A stretch of 64,000 nt of DNA. Origin: Candidatus Bathyarchaeia archaeon (GTDB taxonomy: Archaea > Thermoproteota > Bathyarchaeia > 40CM-2-53-6). Location of the stretch: positions 1,184,001-1,248,000 of the forward strand of contig JBEKFP010000001.1 of the NCBI GenBank assembly GCA_050013255.1, written 5' to 3'. Below are positions 8,776 through 38,802 of the stretch, piece by piece. Made by a program: the position numbers and the translations under genes. Position 1 is the first letter of the stretch; every line of letters starts with the position of its first letter. The notes below the pieces were generated by a model. That model saw only the letters and a list, made by a program, of their open reading frames with translations. It did no database searches and had not been told where the DNA came from.

Positions 8776-9876
8776 TTGAGTTCTACAGAAAAACCAAAAT
8801 CAAGCAACAAGATGTACATCGGGATAGGAATAATTGTTATTCTCGTCATCGCAATTGGAGCAGGAGTTTACCTATACAACCCAACCCAAGCCCCGTCATC
8901 TACAACTCAGACAATGGTGACCTCTGCAGCAGGCGCAATCAAGATTGCTTTTATCAGCAGCGCGCCAATGGAGGAACCGTGGACCTCAGTCATACACACA
9001 GCCATCAACTACTCAATCCAGTACTACGGCGCAGATAAAATAACGTACAAGTGGACTGAAAACGTCCAGTACTCCGACACGCCCAGAGTCATGCGTGAAT
9101 ATGCAACTAACGGCTTCAATCTAATATTCGTTGACGCATTTGGGGCGGACGACACCGCCCGAGCCGCCGCAAAGGACTTTCCAAACACGTACTTCGTCCT
9201 CGGAACAGATAATCACGTGTTCGGCGACAACGTGGCTGTGTTCGACGACTGGATTCATGAACCCGCTTACATGTGCGGCATGATTGCCGGCAACATAACG
9301 AAGAGCAACGTGATCGGAGTCGTTGGAGGCGTAGCCGACCCCGAGGTCAACAGGCTCATAAACGCATTCAAGGATGGAGCAAAGGCCGTAAACCCCAACG
9401 TCAAGGTTCTAATCACATTCATGGGCGAGTGGTTCAACCCTCCCAAGGCAAAGGAAGCTGCATTAGCAGAAATCAACGCTGGCGCGGATGTTCTGTACAG
9501 TGAACGGGAGGGAGGAATTGAGGCAGCAGAACTGAAACACATACCCGTGTTCGGAAGCCTACAGGATCAATATCAACTAGCGCCCGACGTGGTAATCACA
9601 GGGCCTGTTTGGAACATGTGGCCAACAGTCAAACACGAGATTGACTTAGTGATGCAACAAAAGTGGGTAGCCGAAGATCTCAGATTCTATTCAATGATGG
9701 AGAAGGGCGGTTCAATGCTCGCGCCTTGGCATGACTGGGAGACAAGACTAAGTCCGGACATTGTGGCGATGTTGAAGAAAACTAACGCAGTATCAGCGAT
9801 GGACGCAGTCACGGCCCAGATAATGTCTGGAGCTCTTACTGTCCCGATGGATGAGTCCGAACCAGTATCAGGCTAG
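8776..9876 (+). CDS. BMP-family (nucleoside) ABC transporter substrate-binding protein, N-terminal TM anchor
   Basis: TM segment plus Ser/Thr linker; TKSNVIGVVGG, AFKDGAKAVNPNVKV, WFNPPKAKEAA; TTG start chosen (ORF open from 8734). Confidence 0.88.
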   Translation: MSSTEKPKSSNKMYIGIGIIVILVIAIGAGVYLYNPTQAPSSTTQTMVTSAAGAIKIAFISSAPMEEPWTSVIHTAINYSIQYYGADKITYKWTENVQYSDTPRVMREYATNGFNLIFVDAFGADDTARAAAKDFPNTYFVLGTDNHVFGDNVAVFDDWIHEPAYMCGMIAGNITKSNVIGVVGGVADPEVNRLINAFKDGAKAVNPNVKVLITFMGEWFNPPKAKEAALAEINAGADVLYSEREGGIEAAELKHIPVFGSLQDQYQLAPDVVITGPVWNMWPTVKHEIDLVMQQKWVAEDLRFYSMMEKGGSMLAPWHDWETRLSPDIVAMLKKTNAVSAMDAVTAQIMSGALTVPMDESEPVSG

Positions 9877-9898
9877 TGAGGCAGTGCACAGAGGCTAA

Positions 9899-9945
9899 GT
9901 TCCATTTTTCCTTCCCATCTTTCTTTTCCATTTTTGTTTTCTTCT
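9899..9945 (+). terminator. T-rich archaeal terminator/attenuator after BMP gene
   Basis: Long pyrimidine/T tract (tttttccttcccatctttcttttccatttttgttttc) between BMP and ATPase genes. Confidence 0.5.
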
Positions 9946-9973
9946 ATAGCTTTCGGTTAGGACGGCGCTTCGA

Positions 9974-11491
9974 ATGAATGGGCGCGAATACGCAGTAGAC
10001 ATGAGGGGCATCGTCAAGACATTTCCTGGTGTAGTTGCCAACGATAATGTCGATCTTCAGCTGGAACGTGGGAAGATACACGCTCTCCTCGGGGAGAACG
10101 GGGCCGGAAAGACAACACTGATGAACGTGCTATACGGCCTTTACAGGCCCGACGGGGGCGAAATTCTAGTCGGTGACAAGCGGGTTGTTTTCAACTCTCC
10201 CCAAGACGCCATAGCCGTGAAGATTGGAATGATACATCAACACTTCATGCTAGTACAAGCAATGAGCGTTGTCGACAACATAATCTTGGGGCTGAAGTCT
10301 AACAAAGTCGTGTTAGACGAGGTTTCGGCTCAGAAGAGAATTCGGGAGCTTGCTGACACTTATGGCCTGGAGGTTGACCCAGATAGCTACATTTGGCAAC
10401 TGAGTGTTGGCGAACAGCAACGAGTTGAGATCCTAAAAGCAATCTACAGGGACGCTAGCATCTTAATTCTCGACGAACCGACTGCAGTTTTGACCCCTCC
10501 AGAGATCAAGGACTTGTTCCGAGTTCTTCGCAGAATGAAAGGCGAAGGAAAATCCATCGTCTACATCAGTCACAAACTCGATGAGGTACTGGAAATCAGT
10601 GACAGGATCTCCGTCCTAAGGCTCGGCAAAATAGTGGCAGAGGTCTTGACGAAAGAGACAAGCAAGGTAGAACTCGCTCGTATGATGGTGGGTCGAGAAG
10701 TAATCTTCAGACTCTCCAAGACAGCGGCCAAGACTGGAAAACCGATCCTTGAGGTTCAAGACATTTCCGCAGTGAATGATAGGAAGGCGCTTGCGTTAAG
10801 GAAAGTCTCATTTACCGTCGGGGAAGGTGAGATCCTCGGTATCGCTGGCGTCTCGGGCAACGGACAGCGAGAACTCGCGGAGGTTCTTATCGGGCTGAGG
10901 AAGGTTGCGAATGGAAATGTCAAGATCGGTGGCGTCGATGTTACGAATTCGAGCCCAAGAAAAATGGCCGATATGAGCGTGGGGTTCATTCCAGAGGATC
11001 GGGTGGGAGTAGGCTTAGTGATGAATCTCCCAATTCTCAACAACGCGATTCTGAAAGAGTATCGGAACTTTTCGAACGGCCCGCTTCTGGATTATGCCGC
11101 CGCCTCCGCTTACACGGAACGGATAATCAAGGAATTTGGCGTTAAGACGCCCAACATGCGTTACCCCACAAAGACGCTCTCAGGTGGTAATCTGCAGAAA
11201 CTCATCTTGGCACGTGAACTCGCTAGGGACCCGAGGTTATTAATTGCGTCCCAGCCCACACGAGGGCTTGATGTGGGCGCAACTGAGGAAATACGCTCAA
11301 GACTCATAGAAGAAAGATCTCACGGCCGAGGGGTTCTGCTCATCTCCGAAGACCTCGACGAGATACTGTCCCTGAGCGATAGGATCGCTGTAATGTTTGA
11401 GGGACAGATCATGGGTATTGTTCAAGCTGAGGATGCGAAGCTGGAAGATATTGGACTGATGATGGCCGGGTCCAAGAGAATGGAGGCGTGA
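9974..11491 (+). CDS. CUT2/nucleoside ABC transporter ATP-binding protein (duplicated ATPase)
   Basis: GENGAGKT, LSVGEQQRVEI, DEPT, LSGGNLQK. Confidence 0.95.
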   Translation: MNGREYAVDMRGIVKTFPGVVANDNVDLQLERGKIHALLGENGAGKTTLMNVLYGLYRPDGGEILVGDKRVVFNSPQDAIAVKIGMIHQHFMLVQAMSVVDNIILGLKSNKVVLDEVSAQKRIRELADTYGLEVDPDSYIWQLSVGEQQRVEILKAIYRDASILILDEPTAVLTPPEIKDLFRVLRRMKGEGKSIVYISHKLDEVLEISDRISVLRLGKIVAEVLTKETSKVELARMMVGREVIFRLSKTAAKTGKPILEVQDISAVNDRKALALRKVSFTVGEGEILGIAGVSGNGQRELAEVLIGLRKVANGNVKIGGVDVTNSSPRKMADMSVGFIPEDRVGVGLVMNLPILNNAILKEYRNFSNGPLLDYAAASAYTERIIKEFGVKTPNMRYPTKTLSGGNLQKLILARELARDPRLLIASQPTRGLDVGATEEIRSRLIEERSHGRGVLLISEDLDEILSLSDRIAVMFEGQIMGIVQAEDAKLEDIGLMMAGSKRMEA

Positions 11492-11494
11492 GAG

Positions 11495-12562
11495 TTGGCC
11501 TTCTTTACAGTCGAGAAACGTTTACTGCCGTCACGGCGACTCAACATCGCTGCGCCTATTGTATCAACGTTGGTCGCTCTGGTCATTTCTGCTGTCCCAA
11601 TCTATGTGGGCGGAGTCAATCCCCTATACGGTTATGGGGAACTCTTGTATGGCGCCCTCGGCGACAAACTCGCTATAACAGAAACTTTCGTGTTGTTCGC
11701 ACCACTGCTGCTCTGCGGTTTGGCGGTCGCACTAGCCTTCACGTGTAAGTTTTGGAACATCGGAGCAGAGGGACAACTCTATTCCGGAGGGTTGTTCGCA
11801 TCATTCTTCGCGGTTTACGCTACATCTATTCCATCGGTTATAGCCATTCCAGCAATGTTGGCCGTGGGTTTCCTCGGAGGGGCGGGATGGGCTGCGATCC
11901 CTGCGATTCTGAAAGTGAAACTGAAAGTTGACGAAGTTGTAACCACCCTGCTAGGCAACTGGATAATGACCTACGCCGTTGAGGCACTTCTGTTCGGCCC
12001 TTGGAAGAATCCTGCTACGGGATGGCCTGAATCGCCCGTAATCTCTGATACAACGAAATTCCCAATCCTCATAGCGGGCTCGAGATTTCATTTTGGCATA
12101 ATCCTCGCACTACTCGTGGCTGTCGTATTCTATATCATAGTTCGGAAAACGAAGTGGGGGTTTGAGCTGCTCGGAATCGGAGGGAATCAGACCGCTTCGT
12201 ACGCAGCTGGCATTAATGTTCCGAGACAAATCATCCTTGCCGCGATTGTCAGCGGGGGCATTGCAGGCCTTGCAGGCGTAGGTCAAGTTGCGGGTATCCA
12301 GTTTCATATGACGACTGACCTCTCGCCGGGTTACGGTTATACTGGAGTGATAATTGCGATGGTAGGCGCCCTTAACCCCATTGGAGTAGTGTTGGCTTCC
12401 TTCCTTCTGGCAGTAGTTGTTCAGGGTACACAAGCGATGCACCGCGCCACAGGCGTCCCTTGGGCGTTGGCGGAGGGCATGCAGGGGATAATCCTCCTTT
12501 GCCTGTTGGTAGGCATTTTCTTCACCAAATATCGCCTGAAGCAAGGTAGGAGGCGCAGTTAA
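11495..12562 (+). CDS. Nucleoside ABC transporter permease 1
   Basis: WNIGAEGQ, GYGYTGVIIA; multiple TM helices. Confidence 0.93.
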   Translation: MAFFTVEKRLLPSRRLNIAAPIVSTLVALVISAVPIYVGGVNPLYGYGELLYGALGDKLAITETFVLFAPLLLCGLAVALAFTCKFWNIGAEGQLYSGGLFASFFAVYATSIPSVIAIPAMLAVGFLGGAGWAAIPAILKVKLKVDEVVTTLLGNWIMTYAVEALLFGPWKNPATGWPESPVISDTTKFPILIAGSRFHFGIILALLVAVVFYIIVRKTKWGFELLGIGGNQTASYAAGINVPRQIILAAIVSGGIAGLAGVGQVAGIQFHMTTDLSPGYGYTGVIIAMVGALNPIGVVLASFLLAVVVQGTQAMHRATGVPWALAEGMQGIILLCLLVGIFFTKYRLKQGRRRS

Positions 12563-13501
12563 TTGTCGTTACTTGATGCCACCCTGATCACCGGCGTGCT
12601 TGCGATGACGCTGAGAATGGCAACTCCATTGATTTACGGGACTGTAGGGGAAACGTTCTCTGAACGAGCAGGAATCCTAAACTTGGGAATAGAGGGCATG
12701 ATGTTGATGGGTGCAAGCATAGGGTTTCTCGTTGGATTTACTACGGGAGACCTATGGCTAGGAGTAGCCGCAGCTGCACTCACAGGGCTCGTGTTGGGAT
12801 TAGTAATGGCGTTCCTGACGGTATCAATAGGCGCCCAACAGCATGTTGCTGGTTTGGGGCTCACGATAGCCTGCTCGGGTTTCAGCTTTTACATTTACCG
12901 AATATCCGTGGCCAATGTTGGAGGCGTTGCACCACACGTAGAACCATTCGCCACAATTCCCATTCCATACCTGAGTCAAATACCGATCATTGGAGAGGTC
13001 CTGTTCAACCAGCACGCGTTGGCTTACATTGGGTTGATCCTTGTACCAGTCTCAGCCTTCGTACTCTTCAGAACCAGATTTGGCCTTTCTCTTCGCGCTG
13101 TCGGTGAAAACCCGAACGCTGCTGCGACAGCAGGCATCGACGTGTTCAAGATGAGATACATCAGCCTCATCATAGCGGGTGTCCTCAGTGCCATTGGCGG
13201 GGCTTGGCTCTCATTGGCACAGTCGGGCATGTTCCTTCCGGGACTTACGCAGGGGCGAGGATGGGTGTGTATTGCGTTGGTTGTTTTCGCTAACTGGATG
13301 CCCTACAGAGTTCTAGGCGGGGCCATACTGTTCGGTGGAATAGACGCCGTTCAACTGTCGTTGCAGGGAGTTGGTTGGAACATACCTTACCAACTATTCC
13401 TCATGCTTCCTTACGTGCTAACAATAGTGGCCCTAGTAGCGGTCTCTCGACGAGCAAGAGCCCCAGCCGCGCTTCTTCTTTCGTACAAGAGGGAAGATTG
13501 A
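12563..13501 (+). CDS. Nucleoside ABC transporter permease 2
   Basis: SERAGILNLGIEG, RAVGENP, GRGW. Confidence 0.93.
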   Translation: MSLLDATLITGVLAMTLRMATPLIYGTVGETFSERAGILNLGIEGMMLMGASIGFLVGFTTGDLWLGVAAAALTGLVLGLVMAFLTVSIGAQQHVAGLGLTIACSGFSFYIYRISVANVGGVAPHVEPFATIPIPYLSQIPIIGEVLFNQHALAYIGLILVPVSAFVLFRTRFGLSLRAVGENPNAAATAGIDVFKMRYISLIIAGVLSAIGGAWLSLAQSGMFLPGLTQGRGWVCIALVVFANWMPYRVLGGAILFGGIDAVQLSLQGVGWNIPYQLFLMLPYVLTIVALVAVSRRARAPAALLLSYKRED

Positions 13502-13568: not shown

Positions 13569-14798
13569 ATGAGCCCCGACCTTATAGTTCGGAACGCGAG
13601 GTTGCGTTCGGGAAAGGTTTGTGACATATCGATCAGTGATGGAAAATTCGAGGAAATTGGCGAACATCTGAATAGTTCGGCAGGGCGAGTAGTGGACGCG
13701 AACGGTAATTTAGCAACTGAATCCTTCCCAGTTGCCCATCTGCACCTCGATAAGGTCATGACTGGCGCGTTCGCGGAAGAAGCCGTCCTGGTTGAGTATG
13801 AGAAGCCATCCATGGGCGGTGCGATGACCGCCATTGAACTCGCATCGAAAGTGAAGGAACATTACGTGGAATCGGAGATCCTAGAACGAGTTCGACATGT
13901 ACTGACTGACGCTGAGTACTACGGTGTAAGCCACGTTAGAGCCTTCGCCGACGTGGACACCAAAGCAAAGTTGATCGGTGTCAAAGCACTTCTAAAGGCA
14001 AGGGACGAATTCAAGAACCAAGTTGACATTCAGATTGTTCCTTTTCCACAAGACGGAATCATTAGGGAACCTGGGGCAGAGGAATTGCTTTACAAATCCA
14101 TGGACCTAGGCGCAGATTTGGTCGGTGGAATCCCATGGATAGAGCTAACGGAGGAGGATTCGAAGAAGCACATTGACATCGCATTCGAGATTGCGAAGAA
14201 GTATGATGCCGATGTGGCTATGCTGACTGATGACGCAGGCGATCCTGAGCTCAGGACCACTGAGTACTTGGCAAAGTCCGCAATGAAGAATGGTTGGGAA
14301 GGCAGAGTTACTGCCTGCCATGCTAGGGCGACTGCGCTTTACAATGATGTTTACCATAGAAAGTTCGCTGCCCTGCTGAAGAAGGCGGGTGTCGGAATTG
14401 TCACCGACCCTCATACTGGTCCGTTGCATGTGCGCGTGAAGGAGCTTTTGAACGCCGGCGTGACTGTGGCGCTCAGCCAGGACGATGTTTACGATGCGTA
14501 CTATCCGTATGGACGGTGTAACATGCTCGAAATCGCCTTTCTGGCAGCTCATCTGTTGTGGATGACGTCGAACCGGGATCGCGAGATACTGTACGATATG
14601 ATTACCAAGAACCCTGCCAATATTATGGGAATCGACGACTATGGCTTGGCGAATGGAAACGCTGCAGACCTTGTCATACTGAATGCTCAGGATCTAAGGA
14701 CCGCCCTCACATATCACACAGAACCGCTTTACGTCATCAGGAATGGCATGGTCACATGTGAAACACGTGTGAACAGAACCCGCAATGCCGAGAATTAG
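13569..14798 (+). CDS. Metal-dependent amidohydrolase, bacterial cytosine/creatinine deaminase (CodA)-like
   Basis: HLHLDK, FPQDG, GGIPW, ACHA, QDD..DAYYPYG. Confidence 0.88.
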   Translation: MSPDLIVRNARLRSGKVCDISISDGKFEEIGEHLNSSAGRVVDANGNLATESFPVAHLHLDKVMTGAFAEEAVLVEYEKPSMGGAMTAIELASKVKEHYVESEILERVRHVLTDAEYYGVSHVRAFADVDTKAKLIGVKALLKARDEFKNQVDIQIVPFPQDGIIREPGAEELLYKSMDLGADLVGGIPWIELTEEDSKKHIDIAFEIAKKYDADVAMLTDDAGDPELRTTEYLAKSAMKNGWEGRVTACHARATALYNDVYHRKFAALLKKAGVGIVTDPHTGPLHVRVKELLNAGVTVALSQDDVYDAYYPYGRCNMLEIAFLAAHLLWMTSNRDREILYDMITKNPANIMGIDDYGLANGNAADLVILNAQDLRTALTYHTEPLYVIRNGMVTCETRVNRTRNAEN

Positions 14799-16022: not shown

Positions 16023-16484
16023 TCAGAGTTTCCCTATATCCTCATTCCATAACTTTGGATTTCTCTCTATGAACTGCTTCATGATTTCCTTGCATTCATC
16101 GAGGTTTAAGTTGATTACCTGAACGCCATGGTTTACCATTAGCTCCTCAGCCCCGGGAAAAGTCGCCGACTCTCCCACAACTACCTTCTTTATTTCAAAT
16201 TGGACGACTGCGCCTGCACAGAGGTAGCAGGGCATCAATGTGGAGTAGAGTGTTGTGCCGCTATAGCTACCTATTCTTCCTGTCTTGCGAAGACAATCGA
16301 TTTCTGCGTGCGAAGTTGGGTCTCTCTCTTGTACCCGCTTGTTGTGGCCCTGCCCAATGATCTTTCCGTCCCGTACAAGAAGGGACCCAATTGGAATGCC
16401 CCCTTCACGCATTCCGAGCTTTGCTTCCTCGATGGCTACCTTCATGAAATCTTGATAGACTTTCCTATCTTCAATATGATCCAT
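16023..16484 (-). CDS. Zn-dependent nucleoside/cytosine deaminase (yeast FCY1-like)
   Basis: EGGIPIG, HAEIDCL, PCYLC, WNEDIG. Confidence 0.92.
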   Translation of the reverse strand: MDHIEDRKVYQDFMKVAIEEAKLGMREGGIPIGSLLVRDGKIIGQGHNKRVQERDPTSHAEIDCLRKTGRIGSYSGTTLYSTLMPCYLCAGAVVQFEIKKVVVGESATFPGAEELMVNHGVQVINLNLDECKEIMKQFIERNPKLWNEDIGKL

Positions 16485-17348: not shown

Positions 17349-18266
17349 TTATGATAGTCCCATGCTCTGCGCGATGCTCTCCGTGTTGCGCCCGTTCCCT
17401 TTGATATCTGAAATCAAACAAAGCGCTAGGATCGCGCCAACCGAAATGTCAATACCGGAAGTGTGACCTCTGGGTAGAAGAGTTTCCATAGCCAAGATGA
17501 ACTCATCTTCATTTCCTAATGCTGCTGAACGAATTAGTTGTTGAACTTGGTCGTCGAGCACCTGACGTTGCATGTAATCCATCAACTTGGCACTAATCCA
17601 GTTAGTGTTCTCTTGGACAAGGTCGAGGTCTAGAAGCACCTTTGAACGGTTAATGTTGTGTGCGAGAGAGTTGTATGTGGAAAGGAACCCGCCGAGAACG
17701 TCATCTCCCGAGGGGGTGAACCCTGATCCTAAGCCTACAATTTTCATAGCCGGTTCAGAAAATTGCCCAGCCTTTCCGGAGTCTCTTAGGGTGATAATGC
17801 CTCTACGGACAAAGTCCCTCACCCCTTCGTGCGCTAGACCTTTCGAGTCTAAGACGCTCTGACTGGTGTCGATTACCGTTAGAATTGTGGAGGAGAGGGT
17901 CAGAGCCTCTTTAGTTAACCCAAATTGTTGAGCGGGTGGGTTTTCGAGATTGTACGCATTGCCGTACGGGATTGCTGCACTTAGCTGAATTGTTGCCGTA
18001 TCGCCGACGTGAATATTTCTTTCATCAACCGAAACAGGTTCTAAAGGCGTCACTATTCGCTCAACCACAGCTGCTGAATCAAGATTGATGGTTATTGGTG
18101 ATTTCAAATGCCGGTTAGTGATGAAGATGAGGTCGTTCTTGATGGTTTTCACGTAGAATGAATTCGGGAAAGCGCTTACCACAGATCCTACGACGCCTGA
18201 TCCTCCAACTAAGAGTGACCTAGCTGCAAGTGCACCTATGCAGTTCGCTTGGAGGAGGGTTCTCAA
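17349..18266 (-). CDS. DUF2877 / YlbF(AllH)-like protein
   Basis: GLGSGFTPSGDDVLGG and GHTSGID motifs. Confidence 0.85.
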   Translation of the reverse strand: MRTLLQANCIGALAARSLLVGGSGVVGSVVSAFPNSFYVKTIKNDLIFITNRHLKSPITINLDSAAVVERIVTPLEPVSVDERNIHVGDTATIQLSAAIPYGNAYNLENPPAQQFGLTKEALTLSSTILTVIDTSQSVLDSKGLAHEGVRDFVRRGIITLRDSGKAGQFSEPAMKIVGLGSGFTPSGDDVLGGFLSTYNSLAHNINRSKVLLDLDLVQENTNWISAKLMDYMQRQVLDDQVQQLIRSAALGNEDEFILAMETLLPRGHTSGIDISVGAILALCLISDIKGNGRNTESIAQSMGLS

Positions 18267-19580: not shown

Positions 19581-19697
19581 GCTATAAGTCGATTTTGGCG
19601 AGGTTTCAACGGTGTGAATGGGAATTATGTTAAATGCATAATCGAAGCGGTCGTACAGTTGCAGTTGATTAGAGGACTGCTAGTGTGGTTGGGGAGA

Positions 19698-21330: not shown

Positions 21331-21504
21331 ATGAGTGAAAATATCCTACAGCTTTTCACTTCAGAGTTGAAGGTAATCAACATTGGGCTTGAGCTTTTCC
21401 GGGACGCGTTAGAGGCTCAAGGTGTCGACGTGGCACAAGTCTCGTGGCAGATGCCCATTAAACTTGAGAAAGAGTATGAGGACATTCTCTCGAAGATACT
21501 CTAA
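21331..21504 (+). CDS. Small FdrA-associated domain protein
   Basis: LKVINIGLELFRDALEAQGVDVAQVSW motif, normally fused to FdrA or YahG. Confidence 0.8.
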   Translation: MSENILQLFTSELKVINIGLELFRDALEAQGVDVAQVSWQMPIKLEKEYEDILSKIL

Positions 21505-26867: not shown

Positions 26868-26872
26868 GCATG

Positions 26873-29221: not shown

Positions 29222-29287
29222 ATCTCGCACGCAGAAAGGTTCACGCTTATCCAAAGCCTTGTGCTTGGCGTAGACACTCAAGCTCGC

Positions 29288-29728
29288 CTATTGAGCAACC
29301 TTCTGGCTGACGCAATCGAGGGTCTGAGTGATGATTTTTTGGGCTGCGTTCTCGAGTAGGCCTTTAGCGATGCTTCCTAGGGGGCCACTTATCGTGGCGT
29401 CCGCAGCCCAACTCAATTCTGTGCCTTCAGGGACTGGGTTGCAGTTGATTGAAATCTCTGCTTTGAATGCGCTCGTTACGCCGGAACCATCCACCAGCAG
29501 TTTCGCATGATGATTTACAGGGTCTTCCTCCGTCACTCTACTGTTAACTCTGAACGATCCTTTGATGAATCCAATGCCTATCTTCGTTTTTGCCTCGATC
29601 TTTTTTCCCTCAGTTATCTTGTACTCCTCGACTCCGGGTAGGCACTGAGCGATTGATTCAGGCGTCGAAATGAAATTCCATAACTTTTCGACAGGGGCCT
29701 TTACAACCGCTTTCGATTCAAAATGCAA
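29288..29728 (-). CDS. CoxG/SRPBCC-family accessory protein
   Basis: APVEKLWNF...CLPG, IGIGFIKGSF, ISGPLGS. Confidence 0.88.
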   Translation of the reverse strand: MHFESKAVVKAPVEKLWNFISTPESIAQCLPGVEEYKITEGKKIEAKTKIGIGFIKGSFRVNSRVTEEDPVNHHAKLLVDGSGVTSAFKAEISINCNPVPEGTELSWAADATISGPLGSIAKGLLENAAQKIITQTLDCVSQKVAQ

Positions 29729-29891: not shown

Positions 29892-30659
29892 ATGAAACTG
29901 ATTGACCTGTCACAACCACTCAACCAGGAAACGCCCTTCTGGCCGCTCTACCCACCTTTCGAAGTCAAGTTCATCAAGAGAAAGGCTGAGCATGGAGTAA
30001 ACGCCCAGTATATCATGACCTCAAACCACATGGGAACCCACCTTGATGCGCCCCTTCATTTTGTGACCGGAGGCAAAGACATAGAGAAGATCCCCCTCGA
30101 ACAGCTCTACGGACCAGGCGTGATAGTCGATGTCAGCGATGTTGGAGACCTAGGTATTTACACGCCGGATATGGTGGAAAAAAGAGTGCAGCTTCGCGAC
30201 GGAGACATTCTTCTCCTCCATACCGGGTTCCACAGATATTCGTGGTACCAGCCGCAGGGCATGGCCGACGAGGAGAGATACATCCACCGACACCCAGGCC
30301 CAACGAGGGAATGGGTGGATTGGATACTGGGACGAAAAATCAAGCTGTGGGGCGTCGACGCGGTCTCAACCGACCACCCAATGAACCTGCCCATAGGGAG
30401 ATTTCTGCCGAGAATCGCTCCGAAAGTACGCGCCTTATGTGAGAAGAAGTTTGGAAAGGAGAATGTGGACAAACTATTCCCGGAGGAGGATTACCAGTTA
30501 ACACACAACGCTTTGTTTCCACACGATTGCATCCACATTGAAAACCTCGGTGGAGATATTGAGAAACTGCTGAACAAGCGCGTGACAATTGGTTGCTTCC
30601 CTTGGAAGTTCCGTGGTGGGGAAGCTGCTTTTGCTAGGGTTGTCGCGTTTGTAGATTAA
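29892..30659 (+). CDS. Cyclase (kynurenine formamidase/isatin hydrolase) family metal hydrolase, paralog A
   Basis: LIDLSQPL, HMGTHLDAPLHF, GVDAVSTDHP, HIENL. Confidence 0.9.
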   Translation: MKLIDLSQPLNQETPFWPLYPPFEVKFIKRKAEHGVNAQYIMTSNHMGTHLDAPLHFVTGGKDIEKIPLEQLYGPGVIVDVSDVGDLGIYTPDMVEKRVQLRDGDILLLHTGFHRYSWYQPQGMADEERYIHRHPGPTREWVDWILGRKIKLWGVDAVSTDHPMNLPIGRFLPRIAPKVRALCEKKFGKENVDKLFPEEDYQLTHNALFPHDCIHIENLGGDIEKLLNKRVTIGCFPWKFRGGEAAFARVVAFVD

Positions 30660-30682: not shown

Positions 30683-30982
30683 TTAGCCTCCGCCCACGAT
30701 TTCCAAAACGTCAACGCTGTCTATCGTGACCATGTCGTGTTCGAGGAGTGGAGTCCTTAAGCCCTCTAGCATTTTGACGCTATGCCCATTAACAAGCATG
30801 ATTAGGTTGGCGCTCATCTCTTTCGTTCCTGGGTCGAATATGTAACGGCTGAAATCCGGGCCAATCCTTCGTGTGAGCTCCTCCAAGAGGTCACCAACGG
30901 TTTTTACTGTTTCAGCAACTTCGATTTCATCAGAACCTGCAGCCGTTCTTGCACGGCCATGCAATTTGACTCGTATTGCCAT
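30683..30982 (-). CDS. MoaD/ThiS/SAMP ubiquitin-like sulfur carrier
   Basis: beta-grasp pattern, LVNG, GLRTPL, C-terminal GGG. Confidence 0.85.
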   Translation of the reverse strand: MAIRVKLHGRARTAAGSDEIEVAETVKTVGDLLEELTRRIGPDFSRYIFDPGTKEMSANLIMLVNGHSVKMLEGLRTPLLEHDMVTIDSVDVLEIVGGG

Positions 30983-31255
30983 CACGCCCACCCACAAATA
31001 CTATGTCGACAAGGCTTTGCCGAAGCCTCCTAATTCGGTTAACGTTTGGTTTTCGCCTAACGACCAGCATTAACGTTAAGGTTCGAAATCGGCGTCTGCA
31101 TTTTGTCATGCGGCGGCTGCAGCGAATCTTGGGTTAATCTCGGGTTGTGTTGGCTCTCTCTGCCCGTGGGTAGTTTGCAAAAATAATGGGGACCCATTAC
31201 AGTATGAACTTGTGTTTCTCGGGTAAGAGCAACACTGCAAAGGCTTTAATTCAAA

Positions 31256-32383
31256 ATGAGTGCCACCTCATATCGAGAAAATATGAAACAATCAATGACA
31301 GCGGTTGCTTTAATCGTAATGCTTGTCGTCGGAGTTGTAATCGGCATTTTCGTCGGGCCCTCTATGATGCCAAGTCAAGGCGGAATGAGTACAGTAACTA
31401 CAACGGTCGGCGGTGGTGAGGCTAACGCTATCGGGAAACTCAAAGTAGGCCTCATACTGCCAATAACGCCAGAAGACTATTCGTGGAACTACCAAGCGGA
31501 CAAATCAATCAAGTTACTGGGCAGTCAGTTTGGCTTCAACGCTACTGTAGCAGAGAACCTCTTTGATGGAACCAAAGCCGAACCCGTTGCCACTCAATGG
31601 GCAAGCCAAGGCTACAATGTGATCATCGGACAGGGCATCCAATACCAAGACATGTTCATCAAAATCGCTCCACAATTCCCCAACACCCTCTTCCTTTGCG
31701 TTGACTGCTTCAAAGGCGGCCATGACGGCACAGACCCAAGTAATGTTGGCGATGTCTGGTGGTACATGGCTGACGGCGCCTACCTAATGGGTCTACTAGC
31801 AGGAAACATGACCAAGACCAACAAACTGGGCTTGATTGGAGGTGGCCGGGTTCCCTCAATTTGGGCTGGCCACGAAGCTTTCAAGCGCGGAGCTCTCCAT
31901 TCGAACCCCAATGTTCAGTTCATCGAAACATGGATGCCATTCTCGTGGGCCGATGTGGCGGGAGCAAAGAAATCAGCAGAACAAATGGCAGACCAAGGCG
32001 TTGATTTCATTTTCAGCAGTGGAGATGGGGTTGACGTCGGAGTCAGACAAGCGGCTGCAGAAAGGAACATCATGATGACTGGCGTGTACGCCGACGCAGC
32101 ACACTTGGATCCGACCCACATTATGCAAAGCATCGTCGTTCACTGGGACATTGCGTACCTTACAGCTCTCGCTGACTACGTCAGAGGCGATTACAAGAAC
32201 ATCTGGCTACAAGCAGACTTGTTCTCCGGCATGGTTTCCCTAGGCGAATTTGGGTCTCTTGTGCCTGCGAACTATCAGGCTGCTCTTCTACAAGCACAAT
32301 TCAACATACGATTGAACAGTCTTCCATACACGCTGGACCCGACGTGCTTCGACAACGGAAACCAACCGCAGTGCAAACCATAG
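31256..32383 (+). CDS. BMP-family ABC transporter substrate-binding protein (second system)
   Basis: TM anchor plus Thr linker; DYSWN, TKTNKLGLIGG, AFKRGA, WADVAGAK. Confidence 0.87.
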   Translation: MSATSYRENMKQSMTAVALIVMLVVGVVIGIFVGPSMMPSQGGMSTVTTTVGGGEANAIGKLKVGLILPITPEDYSWNYQADKSIKLLGSQFGFNATVAENLFDGTKAEPVATQWASQGYNVIIGQGIQYQDMFIKIAPQFPNTLFLCVDCFKGGHDGTDPSNVGDVWWYMADGAYLMGLLAGNMTKTNKLGLIGGGRVPSIWAGHEAFKRGALHSNPNVQFIETWMPFSWADVAGAKKSAEQMADQGVDFIFSSGDGVDVGVRQAAAERNIMMTGVYADAAHLDPTHIMQSIVVHWDIAYLTALADYVRGDYKNIWLQADLFSGMVSLGEFGSLVPANYQAALLQAQFNIRLNSLPYTLDPTCFDNGNQPQCKP

Positions 32384-33399
32384 ACCGGCTTCGGGGCGTG
32401 GGCTACAATGCCTTCGCACTCGCAGTCGGTATAGTCTTGGGGCTCGCTATAGTCGTCGCCATTGGGGGCGACATTAGAGCAGCCTCAACCTCTCTTTTGT
32501 TAAGTCCGATAAGTTCCGTCTATTCCTTTAGTGAGATTTTCGTTCGAGTGACCATACTTCTGATTATGGGTTTGGGAATTGCCCTTGGTCTCAGGGCCGG
32601 GGTCTGGAATGTTGGTGCTGAAGGCCAATACATTGTCGGTAGCGTCATGGCGATGTACGTTGCCTTCCACGTCACATCGGTTCCTCCGTCAATAGTGATC
32701 GTTCTAATGATTTTGGCAGGTGCCGCGGGAGGTCTCCTCTGGATGGTTGTTCCTGCGCTCCTTAAGGCCAAGTTTGGAGCCAATGAAATTGTAGTTACTC
32801 TTCTGCTGAACCTTGTTGCCTCCAACTTCCTACTGTATGCCCTCGACGGGCCCATCCGCGGGAAAGCTTCTTTCGGCTATCTAATCTCAGATATGTTACC
32901 TACTGATCTGAGAATTCCGAAACTGATTCCAGCAACAAGACTCGGGTTTGGGATTGTAATCGCTATTGTCTTGGTCGTTGCCTTCTACTTGCTGAGCGAA
33001 AGGACTTCTTTCGGACTTCAAGTTAGGACTGTGGGAAAGAATCTGGAAGCCGCAAAATACGCGGGCATTAGCGTCCCTAGAGTCTACATTGTCACTTTGC
33101 TGCTAGCGGGTGCAATGGCTGGCCTCGCTGGAGCAATTCACGTGAGCGGTGTCATTTACACCCTAGACCCCGGTTACCCCTCAGGTTATGGGTATATCGC
33201 AATAATCGTCGCGATGCTAGGTGGGACGTCTGTGATAGGCACCGCAGTCGCTTCGGTAGTCATTAGCTACTTCGTCGTTGGCGCCGAAAATATGCAAAGC
33301 GCTGCACAGGTTCCTTTCGCATTGGTCTACACAATCGAAGGAATTATCCTCTTCAGCCTAGCTGCCGGTCAGTATTTAATGGGACGGAAAAAGTCGTGA
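32344..33399 (+). CDS. Nucleoside ABC transporter permease 1 (second system); true start probably a little downstream
   Basis: WNVGAEGQ, ANEIVVTLLLN, GYGYIAI. Confidence 0.9.
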   Translation: MLRQRKPTAVQTIDRLRGVGYNAFALAVGIVLGLAIVVAIGGDIRAASTSLLLSPISSVYSFSEIFVRVTILLIMGLGIALGLRAGVWNVGAEGQYIVGSVMAMYVAFHVTSVPPSIVIVLMILAGAAGGLLWMVVPALLKAKFGANEIVVTLLLNLVASNFLLYALDGPIRGKASFGYLISDMLPTDLRIPKLIPATRLGFGIVIAIVLVVAFYLLSERTSFGLQVRTVGKNLEAAKYAGISVPRVYIVTLLLAGAMAGLAGAIHVSGVIYTLDPGYPSGYGYIAIIVAMLGGTSVIGTAVASVVISYFVVGAENMQSAAQVPFALVYTIEGIILFSLAAGQYLMGRKKS

Positions 33400-33406: not shown

Positions 33407-34420
33407 TTGTTAAGTAAGTTAAGTAAGTTTTCGCTCAAGACTTGGATTTTGGCCGCCATCATAGGCGTTGCAGTTATGTTGGTGGTTTACGAGCAGTTCG
33501 GCATGTTATTCTTGGAAGCAATTCTTTACCAGACCCTCAAACTAGTTCCTGCACTCTTGCTAGCCGCTCTTGGCGAGTTAATCGCGGAAAAATCAGGTGT
33601 TCTAAACTTAGGAGTGGAAGGGCTCATGCTAATGGGTGCCTTCACGGCCTTCGGCGTAACCTACGTTACTGGAGATCCCGTGATAGGAGTGCTTGCCGCA
33701 ATGGGATTTACTGTTCTTCTCGGTCTAGCCTTCTCCTTCTTCGCGATTAGTCTGCGTACCAATCAGGTCGTAATTGGGCTCGGCCTCTGGCTCTTTGGAC
33801 TGGGGTTATCAGACACCTTGAACCGAGCTTTCTTTACGTCTGGAGCTCCGAGCACTATTCCCATAATCGGAGACATGCATATCCCGGTACTCTCAACGCT
33901 GCCATTGATTGGGAGGTTCATCTTTCAACAGAACCCCATCGTCTACATTTCCATTGCCCTCATACCTGTAGTCGACATTTTCTTGAATAGGACCAGCCTT
34001 GGCGTGAAGATTCGGGCAGTAGGTGAAAACCCGCGTGCAGCTGAAACGATGGGTGTTGACGTTTACAAGATCCGATACGTAGCCGTGCTCATAGGTGCCG
34101 CATTTGCCGGCGCGGGAGGAGCATACTACACGACAACTCTCCTGGGAACTTTCATTCTAAACATCACATTTAGCCGCGGATTCATCGCACTCGCGCTCAT
34201 CTACTTTGGTAAGTGGAAACCTTACAAAGTCTTATTGCCGTTGATTGTTTTCAGTTTTGTTGATTCTTTCCAGCTCGGTCTGCAGGGCGCAGGGGTCCCG
34301 ATCAAATACTTCTTTCTGAATATGCTCCCCTACATCACTATCGTTGCATTGATTCCAATTCTCGGTAGAAAGGCCATTGCTCCGGCTGCTCTGATGCAAC
34401 CCTACAAGAAGGGCGGGTAG
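33407..34420 (+). CDS. Nucleoside ABC transporter permease 2 (second system)
   Basis: EKSGVLNLGVEG, RAVGENP, RGFIALA. Confidence 0.92.
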   Translation: MLSKLSKFSLKTWILAAIIGVAVMLVVYEQFGMLFLEAILYQTLKLVPALLLAALGELIAEKSGVLNLGVEGLMLMGAFTAFGVTYVTGDPVIGVLAAMGFTVLLGLAFSFFAISLRTNQVVIGLGLWLFGLGLSDTLNRAFFTSGAPSTIPIIGDMHIPVLSTLPLIGRFIFQQNPIVYISIALIPVVDIFLNRTSLGVKIRAVGENPRAAETMGVDVYKIRYVAVLIGAAFAGAGGAYYTTTLLGTFILNITFSRGFIALALIYFGKWKPYKVLLPLIVFSFVDSFQLGLQGAGVPIKYFFLNMLPYITIVALIPILGRKAIAPAALMQPYKKGG

Positions 34421-34444: not shown

Positions 34445-35995
34445 TTAGCTAGACTTACTCTGCGTCATCAGTTTAGCTATCTCTTCAATTTTGACGGCAC
34501 CAATAGGAAATGTTCCTGAAATTTTGCCGTTGGATATGACCGCGATTCTATCGCTCATGTCCAATAATTCATCAAGTTCAGTGGAGATAAGTAGGATTGC
34601 TTTTCCCCTTTCTTTCTCTCTCATCAGGAGCTTACGTGTATACTCCGTTGCGGCTACGTCTAAGCCCTTCGTGGGGTTGTGGGCTACTATTATCTTCGGA
34701 TCCCAGAAGAGTTCTCTCGAAAGGAGAAACTTCTGCTTATTCCCCCCTGACAGAGTCCATACAGGAACTGTTTGAGACTGGGCGCGGACGTCATACTCAG
34801 ACATGAGTTTGGTTAGTTGAATGCCAATTGATCGTAAGTCGAGCAATCCAACCTTAGTGAACATTCTAGCCACGTGCGGCTCGATTACCAAATTATCAGA
34901 TAGCGGGAAGTCGAATACCAAACCTGTCTTCTGGTCTTCAGGAATGTGCGCTACGCCGAGTTGTCTGATTTCATCAGGAACCCATCCCGTCACATCCTTA
35001 CCCATGGCAGAAATCTTCCCAGCAGTAGGTTTCCGAATGCACGTCGCTACCTCGACAAGTTCCTTCTGGCCATTCCCAGCAATACCTGCTATCCCTAGTA
35101 TCTCTCCGCCCTTGACGGAAATTGAGATCCCGTCCAAGGCGGTGAGTCCCAAGTTATTCACCGCCGATATGCTACTTAACTCAAGGAGCGGGGTAGTTGT
35201 CTCAGAGGTCAGCCTCTCCGTTCGGAACAGGACCTCACGGCCCACAATCATCTTCGCAAGTTCGGGTCCAGTCACTTTTTTCGTGCTTTCGGTGGCCACA
35301 ACTTTGCCTTGCTTCAGAACGGTAACGTTGTCGGTCACTGCTAAGATCTCATCGATCTTGTGTGAGACAAATACAATAGACTTCCCCGCCTTCGCCATTT
35401 GACGCAGAGCAGAGAAAAGTTCACGCGTTTCTAAGGGCGTGAGAACGGAGGTCGGTTCATCCAGAATCAGGACGTTTGCGCCTTTGAGAAGAGCCTTCAT
35501 AATCTCGACCGACTGCCTCTGCCCAGCAGATAGTTCACGAACCGTTGCATTCGGGTCAACGGCTAGCCCGTTTCGTTTCGAAACATCGTTGATTTCTTTT
35601 TCCAGTCTCTCGCGTTTTACGAGGGGATGCCTCAAGCTCTCGTCCTGCATTACAGCAACGTTCTCAACCACTGTCATTGAATTGATGAGCATGAACTCTT
35701 GGTGAACCATGGCGATTTTCGCGGCCATTGCGTCGCGGGGCGAGTGAAAGTGAGTTTCTTTTCCATATACTAGGATTCTTCCAGAGTCAGGTCGCAGAAG
35801 ACCATAGAGCATGTTGCACAGAGTCGTCTTTCCTGCACCATTCTCTCCAAGAAGCGCGTGGACTTCGCCTTGCTTGACGCTGAAGTTGACGTTGTCATTC
35901 GCAACGAGCGTCCCGAATCGTTTTGTTATGCCCTCAGCCACGAGTGCGTAATCATTTTCAAGTGACGTGTTTGGATTCGTCATCCCGAGTTCCAC
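34445..35995 (-). CDS. Nucleoside ABC transporter ATP-binding protein (second system, convergent)
   Basis: GENGAGKT, DEPT, LSGGNKQK. Confidence 0.94.
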   Translation of the reverse strand: MELGMTNPNTSLENDYALVAEGITKRFGTLVANDNVNFSVKQGEVHALLGENGAGKTTLCNMLYGLLRPDSGRILVYGKETHFHSPRDAMAAKIAMVHQEFMLINSMTVVENVAVMQDESLRHPLVKRERLEKEINDVSKRNGLAVDPNATVRELSAGQRQSVEIMKALLKGANVLILDEPTSVLTPLETRELFSALRQMAKAGKSIVFVSHKIDEILAVTDNVTVLKQGKVVATESTKKVTGPELAKMIVGREVLFRTERLTSETTTPLLELSSISAVNNLGLTALDGISISVKGGEILGIAGIAGNGQKELVEVATCIRKPTAGKISAMGKDVTGWVPDEIRQLGVAHIPEDQKTGLVFDFPLSDNLVIEPHVARMFTKVGLLDLRSIGIQLTKLMSEYDVRAQSQTVPVWTLSGGNKQKFLLSRELFWDPKIIVAHNPTKGLDVAATEYTRKLLMREKERGKAILLISTELDELLDMSDRIAVISNGKISGTFPIGAVKIEEIAKLMTQSKSS

Positions 35996-37013: not shown

Positions 37014-37029
37014 GATGACCGTGACTGGG

Positions 37030-37767
37030 TTAGACGTCTGCTTTCTCTGGAATCCTGAATTTTTGCGACTTGGCTAGCAGGTCCTTTGGTACCGGTTTCT
37101 CACCAAGGTAGCGGGCGTACTTCAATTTCACGAAGTTCTCCCAGTCTTCCTTCGCAGTGTAGAAGATCCGTGAGCCACCGAGTTCGTGCTGCATCTCGGG
37201 GAAGGGTTTCTGCTTGGGAGCCCATTCAGTTCCCATGATCCTCAGGCCGATGTAGCTTTCGAAGGTTGCCCACCATTCCCTCGCTCCCAAATGGTCAAAG
37301 GCGTGCTCCATCTTCGCGAAGTAGAGGGCGGGCCCCACATCAATACCACGTTTGAATGACATTGTGTGAAGGCTGATCGCGATATTCTGATCCCACATTC
37401 TTGCGTTGACGATTCCTACTAGTTTGTCGTCTTGAATTCCCAGTAGCAGGTAGTGGTCCTTAATTCTGTACATCTTCCAGGCCAAGATTTCTGCGTACGT
37501 CCGCCACGCGACGATATCGTAGAAGTCTTTGTTGACATCGACGTAGAGTCTAACTGCCTTGAGAACCTCTGGTGCTTCGGCTCGACTGGCTTGCCGAACA
37601 ACAATTTTGCTTCCATCCTTCATACCCACAAGCTTGGGAGGGTAAACGGCTTTTTCCAAGTAGGGAGCGTCAACAGCCCTGAGAATCGCCTCCATATCCT
37701 GAACTCGCAACTTATGTTCCGTCATAGAGACTTCTGTTGGCGGTTCATAGTAAGTCATAGAATTCAC
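37030..37767 (-). CDS. Uncharacterised GNAT-like protein, paralog B
   Basis: Shares KDFYD.VA.R.YAEI, KDHY, NAR.WD, ISLHT..FKRG, AKMEHAF, EWWAT.ESY, QHELGG with 16530..17252. Confidence 0.65.
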   Translation of the reverse strand: MNSMTYYEPPTEVSMTEHKLRVQDMEAILRAVDAPYLEKAVYPPKLVGMKDGSKIVVRQASRAEAPEVLKAVRLYVDVNKDFYDIVAWRTYAEILAWKMYRIKDHYLLLGIQDDKLVGIVNARMWDQNIAISLHTMSFKRGIDVGPALYFAKMEHAFDHLGAREWWATFESYIGLRIMGTEWAPKQKPFPEMQHELGGSRIFYTAKEDWENFVKLKYARYLGEKPVPKDLLAKSQKFRIPEKADV

Positions 37768-37953
37768 TTGGAGGGCTGAAGTGAATTTGTTCCAATATGA
37801 GTGTTATTCTTCGTTTCCAGCATGTCTAGTAACGCTACAACCTCTATTCGAAAGTTGGGGAATTTTCATTTGATTCATTCCGTTATTGTCGCATGTAGTA
37901 AATGCCCAAAAGACTTGTCAAGCGGGCAACTCGAACTTGATTTTGAGCGAGCC

Positions 37954-38802
37954 TTGAAGTTTCTTGACTTAACTATCCCACTCGGAATTGCTACACCACC
38001 GTGGCCGACGTACGAACCGCTTCAGCTGAAATACTTCAAACGGTTGGCTCCCAACGGAGCGAACGGCCAAGTCCTAACGCACTCGAACCATGTCGGAACC
38101 CATTTGGACGGTGAGATCCATTTCTTCACCCCTGGAAAGGATATGGCGAGTTTGACGATGGACTTCCTGGTTGGACCGGGCGCTGTTGTCGACCTTTCCG
38201 ATGTTGCCGGTGATTACGATGTATACACTTCGAAGATGATTGAAGATAGAGTCAAAGTTGGAGAAGGCGACATACTCCTCATCCATACTGGCTACCACAG
38301 GTATGGTTGGGATCAACCGACGGCGGACGAGATTCGGTATATGGTGAAGCACCCAGGCCCAGACAGGGAGTTTGCCGAATGGGCGAAGCGGAAGAAGATC
38401 AAATGGATTGGCGTCGACTGCGGCAGCGCCGACCATCCAATGAACACGATTATTCGTGATTGGATGCCCAGACAGGCAAAAGAGGCTGACGCGCACTTTC
38501 AGAAGAAGTTCGGCATGAAATTGAACGAGTACTTCACGGACGATAAGTACCAACTCATGCATATCGAAATGTTTCCTTATGGAATCATTCACGCCGAATG
38601 CGTTGGCGGCGACATAGACCTACTCCTCAACAAACGCACAACCATCGGCTTCTTCCCGTGGCGCTTCGTAGACGGCGAGGCAAGCATTGGACGGTGTGTA
38701 GCCGTCATGGATGATACCGAATACGAACAAGCGATGAAAAAGAAAGCCGCGCTACCGAAAACCCGCTTTGGGGATTCGATCGGATGCAAAGGTTTCAAGT
38801 GA
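37954..38802 (+). CDS. Cyclase-family metal hydrolase, paralog B
   Basis: FLDLTIPL, HVGTHLDG, HPGP, GVDCGSADHPMN, HAEC; TTG start chosen (ORF open from 37801). Confidence 0.9.
   Translation: MKFLDLTIPLGIATPPWPTYEPLQLKYFKRLAPNGANGQVLTHSNHVGTHLDGEIHFFTPGKDMASLTMDFLVGPGAVVDLSDVAGDYDVYTSKMIEDRVKVGEGDILLIHTGYHRYGWDQPTADEIRYMVKHPGPDREFAEWAKRKKIKWIGVDCGSADHPMNTIIRDWMPRQAKEADAHFQKKFGMKLNEYFTDDKYQLMHIEMFPYGIIHAECVGGDIDLLLNKRTTIGFFPWRFVDGEASIGRCVAVMDDTEYEQAMKKKAALPKTRFGDSIGCKGFK

Follow-up and report, generated by a model that had tools for sequence, protein, structure and literature searches.

What would an anaerobic archaeon do with a 30-kb block of genes that brings together paired importers, paired molybdenum hydroxylases, paired cyclase-family hydrolases and a carbamoyltransferase? 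The block lies at 8734-38802 of a 64,000-nucleotide stretch of a Candidatus Bathyarchaeia genome (the window, meaning the whole stretch that was analysed, to which positions refer unless another contig is named). A first reading of the letters, the original prediction, took it for a nucleoside/purine catabolic island encoding an undescribed anaerobic route of import, deamination, Mo-dependent oxidation, cyclase ring opening and carbamoyl transfer. The gene content that we find fits that order of steps. We consider it quite likely that the island is one pathway in which a molybdenum hydroxylase, a cyclase-family hydrolase and the carbamoyltransferase AllFGH act on a ureide, whatever the ring from which it derives; to the more specific proposal, an anaerobic, ATP-yielding breakdown of ring-nitrogen bases, most likely the pyrimidines cytosine, uracil and thymine by way of barbiturate, we give roughly even chances. 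Every step is read from protein family, fold and gene neighbourhood. The purine or nucleoside substrate of the original prediction looks doubtful, given a cytosine-type deaminase, binding proteins that resemble free-base binders, the absence of a nucleoside-cleaving enzyme from the island, the identity of one presumed active-site residue in the hydroxylases and a separate purine-looking island elsewhere in the genome.

Pfam and NCBIfam scans (30 open reading frames, ORFs, in 6608-41801; 55 ORFs named window-wide) recovered every gene type that had been listed (Table 1). Four modules are present in two copies: a BMP-type ABC importer with its ATPase and permeases, a trimer of large, medium and small subunits of the xanthine dehydrogenase (XDH) family, a PF04199 cyclase hydrolase and an orphan protein with a GNAT fold. 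AllFGH, a CoxG-like protein, a ThiS/MoaD-type protein and a 363-aa orphan resembling uracil phosphoribosyltransferase (UPRTase) are single, which restricts the claim that nearly every module is duplicated to the four just named. The two deaminases, an amidohydrolase and a CDA-fold protein, are unrelated, as had been claimed. The paired copies are 29-53% identical (XDH large subunits 53%, the 240- and 245-aa orphans 51%, cyclases 50%, BMPs 29%). In a maximum-likelihood tree of 19 cyclases the two window copies fall into two separate clades, cyc1 and cyc2, each with support of 100/100 and each also holding closer orthologs of its window copy from other contigs, which argues that the paired copies are old paralogs and not recent duplicates.

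The gene-neighbourhood comparison that had been suggested as a check shows a conserved catabolic unit. We searched 89 related loci around homologs of the GNAT-fold orphan with the window proteins (9 genome and 80 metagenome loci, the 80 being the most similar of 503 confirmed hits; 40 of the 89 are at least 10 kb long). Cyclase and BMP each occur in 39 loci (25 and 29 of the 40 longer ones), AllH in 33 (18), CoxG in 30 (17), AllG in 27 (20), AllF in 27 (18), the CodA-like deaminase in 13 (12) and the XDH large subunit in one, which is among the longer loci. Across 151 Bathyarchaeia genomes the GNAT orphan is present in 8, AllG in 9 and the cyclase in 8, and all three occur together in 6; in 4 of the 5 such genomes other than the host, an XDH large subunit lies within ~5 kb of AllG. 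One of them (G030), from another family and with a different gene order, carries in contiguous form a BMP-ABC importer, AllH, the GNAT orphan, a thiolase, a cyclase, AllF, AllG, one XDH trimer, XdhC and MoeA. From the locus counts, the co-occurrence and this rearranged copy we therefore define the core as XDH, cyclase, AllFGH, GNAT orphan and BMP importer, with CoxG and the CodA-like deaminase as frequent additions. The same loci carry acyl-CoA genes, in many cases immediately following the cyclase or GNAT orphan gene: a carboxyltransferase in 25 of the 89, methylmalonyl-CoA epimerase in 19, mutase in 17 and thiolase in 11. Recurring (methyl)malonyl-CoA enzymes suggest a malonate- or methylmalonate-type product, which fits barbiturate or 5-methylbarbiturate as the precursor and does not fit oxamate.

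For the carbamoyl-transfer step there is a characterised relative. The FdrA, DUF1116 and DUF2877 proteins of the original prediction are present as AllF, AllG and AllH, and its account of E. coli FdrA-YlbE-YlbF as merely acting in allantoin use is outdated: these proteins are now characterised as oxamate carbamoyltransferase, AllFGH, the enzyme that cleaves oxalurate to give oxamate and carbamoyl phosphate (Kim and Kim 2024, PMC11326118). At 35%, 46% and 30% identity to their E. coli counterparts, homology of the three subunits is secure and another acyl-urea substrate is therefore possible. The island AllF spans positions 2-508 of the 555-position FdrA profile, without the last ~45 residues, and the 57-aa ORF next to it matches both the profile beyond that point and residues 511-537 of E. 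coli FdrA. By tblastn the 57-aa ORF is found in 24 of the 89 loci at 43-95% identity (and also in locus L128); it lies directly 3' of AllF in 20 of the 24, the remaining four being without a half-length AllF match, and in G030 a matching stretch stands at the start of the AllG ORF. Judged on these alignments, the ORF is the detached C-terminal tail of AllF. Like E. coli allFGHK, the island has all three subunit families side by side in a genome with a carbamate kinase, and carbamoyl phosphate would be the expected product. It differs in the split AllF, in the modest identities, in having no carbamate kinase in the operon and no allB/C/D/E neighbours (the AllD family is not in the genome), and in its company of XDH, cyclase, GNAT orphan and BMP importers, and its substrate is probably not oxalurate.

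Both XDH sets are complete, with Mo, FAD and 2x[2Fe-2S] subunits, and both score below every NCBIfam equivalog cut-off (XdhA_XDHase, 485 and 536 bits against 780). At the position that we take to be equivalent to bovine Glu802, the xanthine-type residue after GGGFGGK, the two sets (A and B) have Val or Ala, and the presumed equivalents of Arg880 (RGFG) and of the catalytic Glu1261 (GIGE) are kept; in set A the motif reads GGGFGGK-V, and an XDH paralog from the second island described below reads GGAFGGKE. Orthologs of set B stand beside AllG in three genomes (G113, G136 and G030), and a distant one in a fourth (G066). CoxG, where it occurs in the related loci, is usually directly beside the GNAT orphan. 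The protein that had been called a SAMP is a ThiS/MoaD-type sulfur carrier ending in GGG that scores just below the MoaD_arch and SAMP1 cut-offs (moaD_arch, 47.4 bits against 49.5). It probably serves molybdopterin synthesis; ThiS/ThiF, MoeA, MobA and XdhC are carried by related loci.

The cyclases pass the PF04199 cut-off by a wide margin (130 and 109 bits against 23.1). Copy 1 has the metal motif HxGTHxDxPxH and matches kynurenine formamidase and isatin hydrolase, and the motif residues H, G, T, H, D and H are invariant across 19 homologs. Copy 2 is 50% identical to copy 1 from residue 52 onward and its orthologs are 278-305 aa long; its true start is probably the TTG at 37954.

Both importers were predicted to take up nucleosides, and for the binding proteins a free base is the better guess. 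The Bmp domains score 116 and 143 bits. Among solved structures BMP1 is closest to AtzT (6pi5, 117 bits) and 3s99 (113 bits), with 62 bits to PnrA (6y9u), and BMP2 is closest to 3s99 (94 bits) and AtzT (72 bits), with 35 bits to PnrA; both thus score about twice as high against the free-base binders as against the nucleoside-binding PnrA. Free guanine is bound by AtzT, and the binding site of 3s99 contains modelled adenine (PMC6834077). BMP1 keeps the equivalents of the AtzT stacking residue Trp194 and of Glu165 and is without Ser97, Asn218 and Asn220, three side chains that contact guanine; two of the five hydrogen-bonding residues are kept (Glu165 and the backbone-bonding Phe98), and Tyr45 aligns to Thr84 with Trp83 beside it. 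Pfam and NCBIfam revealed no nucleoside phosphorylase or hydrolase in the island, and the single purine nucleoside phosphorylase of the genome is far away. It is the match to free-base binders together with this absence that makes free bases the better guess for the ligands.

Of the two deaminases, the CDA-fold protein aligns over its full length with yeast cytosine deaminase (1uaq/1ox7, E 5e-36, 127 bits; query residues 11-152 against 12-158 of 158), with lower scores to TadA (72 bits) and guanine deaminase (53 bits), and is on this comparison a yeast (Fcy1)-type cytosine deaminase. The amidohydrolase reaches 270 bits with the cytosine deaminase model NF005748, under its cut-off of 438, and in the PDB it comes closest to AtzC (194 bits) and E. 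coli CodA (175 bits). The 363-aa orphan between them, described earlier as UPRTase-like, does resemble UPRTases at the level of the fold (model with a predicted local distance difference test score, pLDDT, of 93.7; top 7 Foldseek matches all UPRTases, E 3e-7 to 5e-6, TMt ~0.6) and is only loosely tied to the cluster. It has no NCBIfam match, no Pfam match even at E<=10, which leaves it outside PF14681, and no match in a PDB sequence search even at E<=10; the Atlas lead to UPRTase was only 0.79. The family comprises 92 representatives among 1.84 billion proteins, and in the phosphoribosyl pyrophosphate loop the window copy (QDTVASSRS) departs from the family consensus (PDTxATGxT). We considered this orphan as a member of the core and rejected it, since it is found in only 3 of the 6 genomes that combine GNAT orphan, cyclase and AllG.

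The GNAT-fold orphans are a conserved family of unknown function, to which the island gives a testable context. Copy 1 has no Pfam match and copy 2 reaches 16.4 bits with Acetyltransf_1 against a cut-off of 20.7; 570 homologs at E<=0.001 are likewise without a Pfam domain and are labelled hypothetical or N-acetyltransferase, and where the organism is named they come from Bathyarchaeia, Acidilobales, Chloroflexota and others. Across 19 diverse members of the family, 38 alignment columns are invariant. The GNAT fold of the 240-aa copy, which had been proposed, is confirmed on its AlphaFold model (pLDDT 89.4): Foldseek returns it at E 5e-6, with 191 PDB matches at E<=0.001, those listed being nearly all GNAT acetyltransferases, and VIA aligns 164 residues to 1yre_A (Z 13.8, root-mean-square deviation 3.2 A). 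The stretch R135-G-A-G-I-G140 is present, with R135 and G140 invariant, and may be the CoA pyrophosphate-binding motif R/Q-x-x-G-x-G/A. In a wide VIA search with the orphan the top 50 were generic GNATs only, none of them malonyl-CoA decarboxylase, a listing that does not exclude this function.

A second island lies in the same genome at G000:C1:~978000-1011000, ~173-206 kb upstream of the window (loci L113 and L112). It contains two more XDH trimers, XdhC, ThiS, two luciferase-like oxidoreductases, an adenine deaminase, a third BMP-ABC importer, an SsnA/TRZ-ATZ-like amidohydrolase, a cysteine synthase, a threonine-synthase-like pyridoxal-phosphate enzyme and two OTC-family carbamoyltransferases that flank the carbamate kinase of the genome (428 bits, above the equivalog cut-off). 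In its make-up this second island is similar to the reductive uric acid route, and it looks like the better purine candidate. Of the 55 window ORFs none was named as a uricase, allantoinase, allantoate amidohydrolase or carbamate kinase, as the original prediction had stated; for carbamate kinase, the gene is present ~180 kb upstream. Genome-wide there is no Ldh_2/AllD and no uricase, and matches to allantoinase models are sub-threshold only, which leaves the genome with no classical source of oxalurate.

Taken together, these observations suggest the following scheme. The two BMP-ABC importers would bring in free bases, and the Fcy1-type and CodA/AtzC-type deaminases would convert cytosine-type bases into uracil or thymine. 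The two XDH-family hydroxylases, with CoxG and the MoaD-type protein as cofactor helper, would hydroxylate C6 to give barbiturate or 5-methylbarbiturate, and the two cyclase-family amidohydrolases would open the ring to an acyl-urea (ureidomalonate), in place of the unrelated barbiturase. AllF with its 57-aa tail, AllG and AllH would then convert the acyl-urea and phosphate into carbamoyl phosphate and malonamate, in parallel to the conversion of oxalurate into oxamate, and ATP would be made from carbamoyl phosphate by the carbamate kinase encoded elsewhere in the genome. The C3 remainder would enter acyl-CoA metabolism, where the GNAT orphan could act as an acyl-CoA enzyme, for instance a malonyl-/malonamoyl-CoA decarboxylase or an acyl transferase. 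The paired copies may form two parallel lines for different bases. We favour pyrimidines because of the Fcy1-type and CodA/AtzC-like deaminases, the UPRTase-fold neighbour, the free-base-like BMPs, the Val and Ala at the presumed Glu802 site, the separate purine-looking island and the C3-CoA neighbours.

Several observations weigh against the pyrimidine proposal. The 89 loci are mostly kin and many are short, so that the counts are not independent, and an XDH subunit occurs in only two of them (one with a large subunit, another with medium and small together); a group at 56-61% identity has only Mo-cofactor genes nearby. Our reading of the XDH motif depends on the presumed bovine numbering. 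The UPRTase-like family is found in 19 of the 151 Bathyarchaeia genomes, 16 of which are without the cluster, the other three being in the six-genome set. The carbamate kinase stands beside other carbamoyltransferases, outside the window. The roles given to the GNAT orphan and to the acetoacetate-CoA ligase at the edge of the island are guesses, and the ligase passes acetoacetate-specific cut-offs, which makes a role with malonamate no more than that. The nearest solved relatives of the BMPs are purine-base binders, and AtzT is described as binding uracil, cytosine and thymine only at 0.6-1.6 mM (PMC6834077). The sole known substrate of AllFGH, finally, is the purine-derived ureide oxalurate, with oxamate as its counterpart (PMC11326118).

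The last two points are also what speaks for a purine or nucleoside route, in which the XDHs would take guanine or xanthine to urate, the cyclases would stand in for allantoinase-type enzymes on the way to oxalurate, and AllFGH would split it as in E. coli. The best NCBIfam matches of the XDH subunits are indeed the XdhA/B/C models, though below cut-off, and in other archaea allFGHK and bmpA-nupABC are reported in a 'purine product' context (PMC12625717). We nevertheless regard this route as unlikely: many of the steps from urate to oxalurate have no candidate in a genome that lacks uricase, Ldh_2/AllD and any above-threshold allantoinase, the deaminases are cytosine-type and not guanine- or adenine-type, the presumed Glu802 is absent, a better purine candidate lies in the second island, and for a C2 product like oxamate there would be little use for (methyl)malonyl-CoA enzymes. 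Also unlikely, in our judgement, is the same enzyme logic applied to another ureide or N-heterocycle, be it triazine-type (ammelide, cyanurate, biuret), hydantoin/parabanate or an unidentified heterocycle of peat, with the deaminases and XDHs preparing the ring and AllFGH phosphorolysing an acyl-urea or biuret-type product. AtzC and AtzT are the best solved matches of the amidohydrolase and of BMP1, the substrates of XDHs and cyclases are not readable from sequence, many loci have no XDH nearby, and nitrifiers carry AllFGHK beside biuret and triuret hydrolases (PMC12625717). Pyrimidines are favoured over such rings by the close full-length match of the Fcy1-type deaminase to a cytosine-specific enzyme, by the C3-CoA neighbours, which fit malonate-type products, and by the window ORFs, among which no AtzD/barbiturase-type, biuret hydrolase or allophanate hydrolase family was named.

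It could also be that there is no single pathway and that two importers, Mo enzymes of unrelated function and AllFGH merely lie together in the host genome. Other contigs do combine the parts differently (the GNAT orphan may be accompanied by ABC-2 alone, for example, or AllFGH by the GNAT orphan alone), and the island is divided over both strands into at least ten transcription units; a search of 15 intergenic regions for a common operator motif gave one shared 10-mer only, which we take as chance. We consider this very unlikely, since AllG, cyclase and GNAT orphan coincide in 6 genomes though each is confined to 8-9 of 151, G030, from a different family, has this set and XDH side by side in another order, and both cyclase paralog lines keep the same company in the tree.

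Besides E. coli allFGHK, three other known systems can be compared with the proposed pyrimidine route. In aerobic actinobacteria, the oxidative pyrimidine pathway employs uracil/thymine dehydrogenase (EC 1.17.99.4), barbiturase (EC 3.5.2.1) and ureidomalonase (EC 3.5.1.95) in turn. The proposed intermediates (uracil, barbiturate, ureidomalonate) are the same, and a multi-subunit Mo/FAD/FeS dehydrogenase would likewise act first. The island differs in that none of the window ORFs was named as a homolog of barbiturase (AtzD-type) or ureidomalonase, ring opening being assigned to the cyclase family, and in that the ureido group would be released by phosphorolysis, with carbamoyl phosphate and a gain of ATP, and not by hydrolysis to urea; its host is an anaerobic archaeon, and we liken it to this pathway in its working without making it a member. 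The reductive uric acid pathway of E. coli and gut anaerobes (XdhD, YgfK, SsnA, HyuA, YgeW, YgeX and carbamate kinase; bioRxiv 10.1101/2025.05.19.654654) is also an anaerobic nucleobase route with an XDH homolog first and carbamoyl transfer and carbamate kinase last. Its marker types (SsnA-like amidohydrolase, OTC-type carbamoyltransferases, carbamate kinase, adenine deaminase), however, are those of the second island, whereas the window uses AllFGH and cyclases. In the allFGHK and bmpA-nupABC clusters of ammonia-oxidising archaea and comammox, AllFGH also lies beside a BMP-type ABC importer, and in archaea; these clusters come with allK and with biuret and triuret hydrolases and have no genes for upstream ring degradation, and the island instead has XDHs, cyclases, GNAT orphans and cytosine-type deaminases (PMC12625717).

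If the pyrimidine route is right, the island would provide gene candidates for uracil/thymine dehydrogenase, a second and unrelated solution to barbiturate ring opening, a wider substrate range for the newly identified AllFGH enzyme, and a substrate-level gain of ATP from nucleobases in Bathyarchaeia, abundant anaerobes of peat and sediments, with a bearing on the recycling of nucleic-acid nitrogen and carbon. To our knowledge, uracil/thymine dehydrogenase activity has no assigned sequence. A broader proposal, which we regard as possible but doubtful, is that in Bathyarchaeia, and in those Chloroflexota that also have the GNAT orphan, pyrimidine bases are fermented by an ATP-yielding barbiturate route so far unpublished, in which the XDH clade would be the uracil/thymine dehydrogenase, the cyclase a non-homologous barbiturase, AllFGH a general acyl-urea phosphorylase and the GNAT family a new acyl-CoA enzyme completing the route, with the two lines serving different bases, for example uracil and thymine. 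The original prediction had called its pathway undescribed, and we too found no paper describing the route, nor any that connects XDH and AllFGH with a cyclase-family enzyme, or carbamate kinase with barbiturate, in a search that left subscription journals largely outside. The window contributes an archaeal version with two paralogous lines and the contrast to a purine-like island in the same genome.

The archaeal origin of the DNA is upheld: the host genome (2.46 Mb in three contigs) has Bathyarchaeia metagenome-assembled genomes (MAGs) from peat and soil as sources of its closest contigs, and an Alba gene (Pfam) adjoins the island on the right. From left to right the order is acetoacetate-CoA ligase, BMP1 with its ATPase and two permeases, the CodA-like amidohydrolase and the 363-aa orphan; then, on the minus strand, the CDA-fold deaminase, the 240-aa orphan, AllH and AllG, followed by AllF on the plus strand; then the minus-strand small, medium and large subunits of XDH set A, those of set B, and CoxG, followed by cyclase 1 and the ThiS/MoaD-type protein; and finally BMP2 with two permeases, its ATPase on the opposite strand, a 319-aa ORF, the 245-aa orphan and cyclase 2.

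Table 1. Features of the island and its left flank, in order of position (window coordinates).
Feature	Position	Strand	Evidence and remarks
Acetoacetate-CoA ligase	6608-8578	+	NCBIfam NF002937 872 bits and TIGR01217 819 bits, both above cut-off; flanks the island
BMP-family substrate-binding protein 1	8734-9876	+	Pfam Bmp, E 2.7e-33
Importer 1, ATPase	9974-11491	+	Pfam ABC_tran (two domains)
Importer 1, permeases	11495-12562, 12563-13501	+	Pfam BPD_transp_2
CodA/AtzC-type amidohydrolase, putative deaminase	13569-14798	+	Pfam Amidohydro_3
UPRTase-fold orphan, 363 aa	14906-15985 (ORF opens 14894)	+	Fold from structure model
Predicted yeast (Fcy1)-type cytosine deaminase, CDA fold	16023-16484	-	Pfam dCMP_cyt_deam_1
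GNAT-fold orphan copy 1, 240 aa	16530-17252	-	Same strand as AllG-AllH, directly downstream
AllH (DUF2877) homolog	17349-18266	-	Pfam AllH, E 5.7e-20, 72 bits; 30% identity over 107 C-terminal residues to E. coli YlbF
AllG (DUF1116) homolog	18276-19580	-	Pfam AllG, E 1.5e-84, 283 bits; 46% identity over 417 residues to E. coli YlbE
AllF (FdrA) homolog	19614-21317	+	NF004760, 400.7 bits (cut-off 433); 35% identity over 525 residues to E. coli FdrA residues 1-491
57-aa ORF, putative detached AllF C-terminal piece	21331-21504	+	FdrA profile positions 502-539 of 555, E 0.0017
XDH-family set A: [2Fe-2S], FAD, Mo subunits	21578-22111, 22117-23013, 23000-25375	-	Pfam domains
XDH-family set B: [2Fe-2S], FAD, Mo subunits	25529-26002, 26004-26924, 26873-29281	-	Pfam domains
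CoxG-like SRPBCC protein	29288-29728	-	Pfam COXG, E 1.3e-25
Cyclase-family metal amidohydrolase copy 1	29892-30659	+	Pfam Cyclase, E 7.7e-38; cyc1 clade
ThiS/MoaD-type sulfur-carrier protein	30683-30997	-	Pfam ThiS; C-terminal GGG
BMP-family substrate-binding protein 2	31256-32383	+	Pfam
Importer 2, permeases	32344-33399, 33407-34420	+	Pfam
Importer 2, ATPase	34445-35995	-	Pfam
Putative secreted membrane-anchored surface protein, 319 aa	36054-37013	+	N-terminal hydrophobic signal and C-terminal anchor with basic tail, by eye
GNAT-fold orphan copy 2, 245 aa	37030-37767	-	51% identical to copy 1
Cyclase-family metal amidohydrolase copy 2	37801-38802	+	Pfam Cyclase, E 4.1e-31; cyc2 clade

The original prediction supposed that the orphans might supply missing chemistry. 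For the 319-aa ORF, which matches no Pfam or NCBIfam family, this seems not to hold; it reads as a surface protein, not an enzyme, and it travels with importer 2, standing beside homologs of that importer in 6 of the 89 loci. The acetoacetate-CoA ligase adjoins the GNAT orphan in only 4 of the 89 loci, all close relatives, and was for that reason rejected as a member of the conserved core. It may handle the carbon skeleton; its membership of the island is uncertain.

Some of the related loci show peculiarities of their own. In one metagenome locus the GNAT orphan and the cyclase are separated by an inserted IS605 OrfB/TnpB-type gene (L061:10495-12036, minus strand), and in another a ParB-like gene lies between CoxG and the GNAT orphan (L074). 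Two contigs with 86-88% identical copies of the cluster go under bacterial MAG names (L005 and L009; Acidoferrales and Methylomirabilota), labels that likely reflect mis-binning. Outside the island, the window has a second CDA-family (dCMP/cytidine-type) deaminase at 42628-43104 (+) and a pfkB-family kinase at 3911-4891 (+), which could belong to nucleoside salvage, and, at 48465-51789 (+), a 785-aa glycyl-radical (PFL-like) enzyme with a radical-SAM activase encoded ahead of it.

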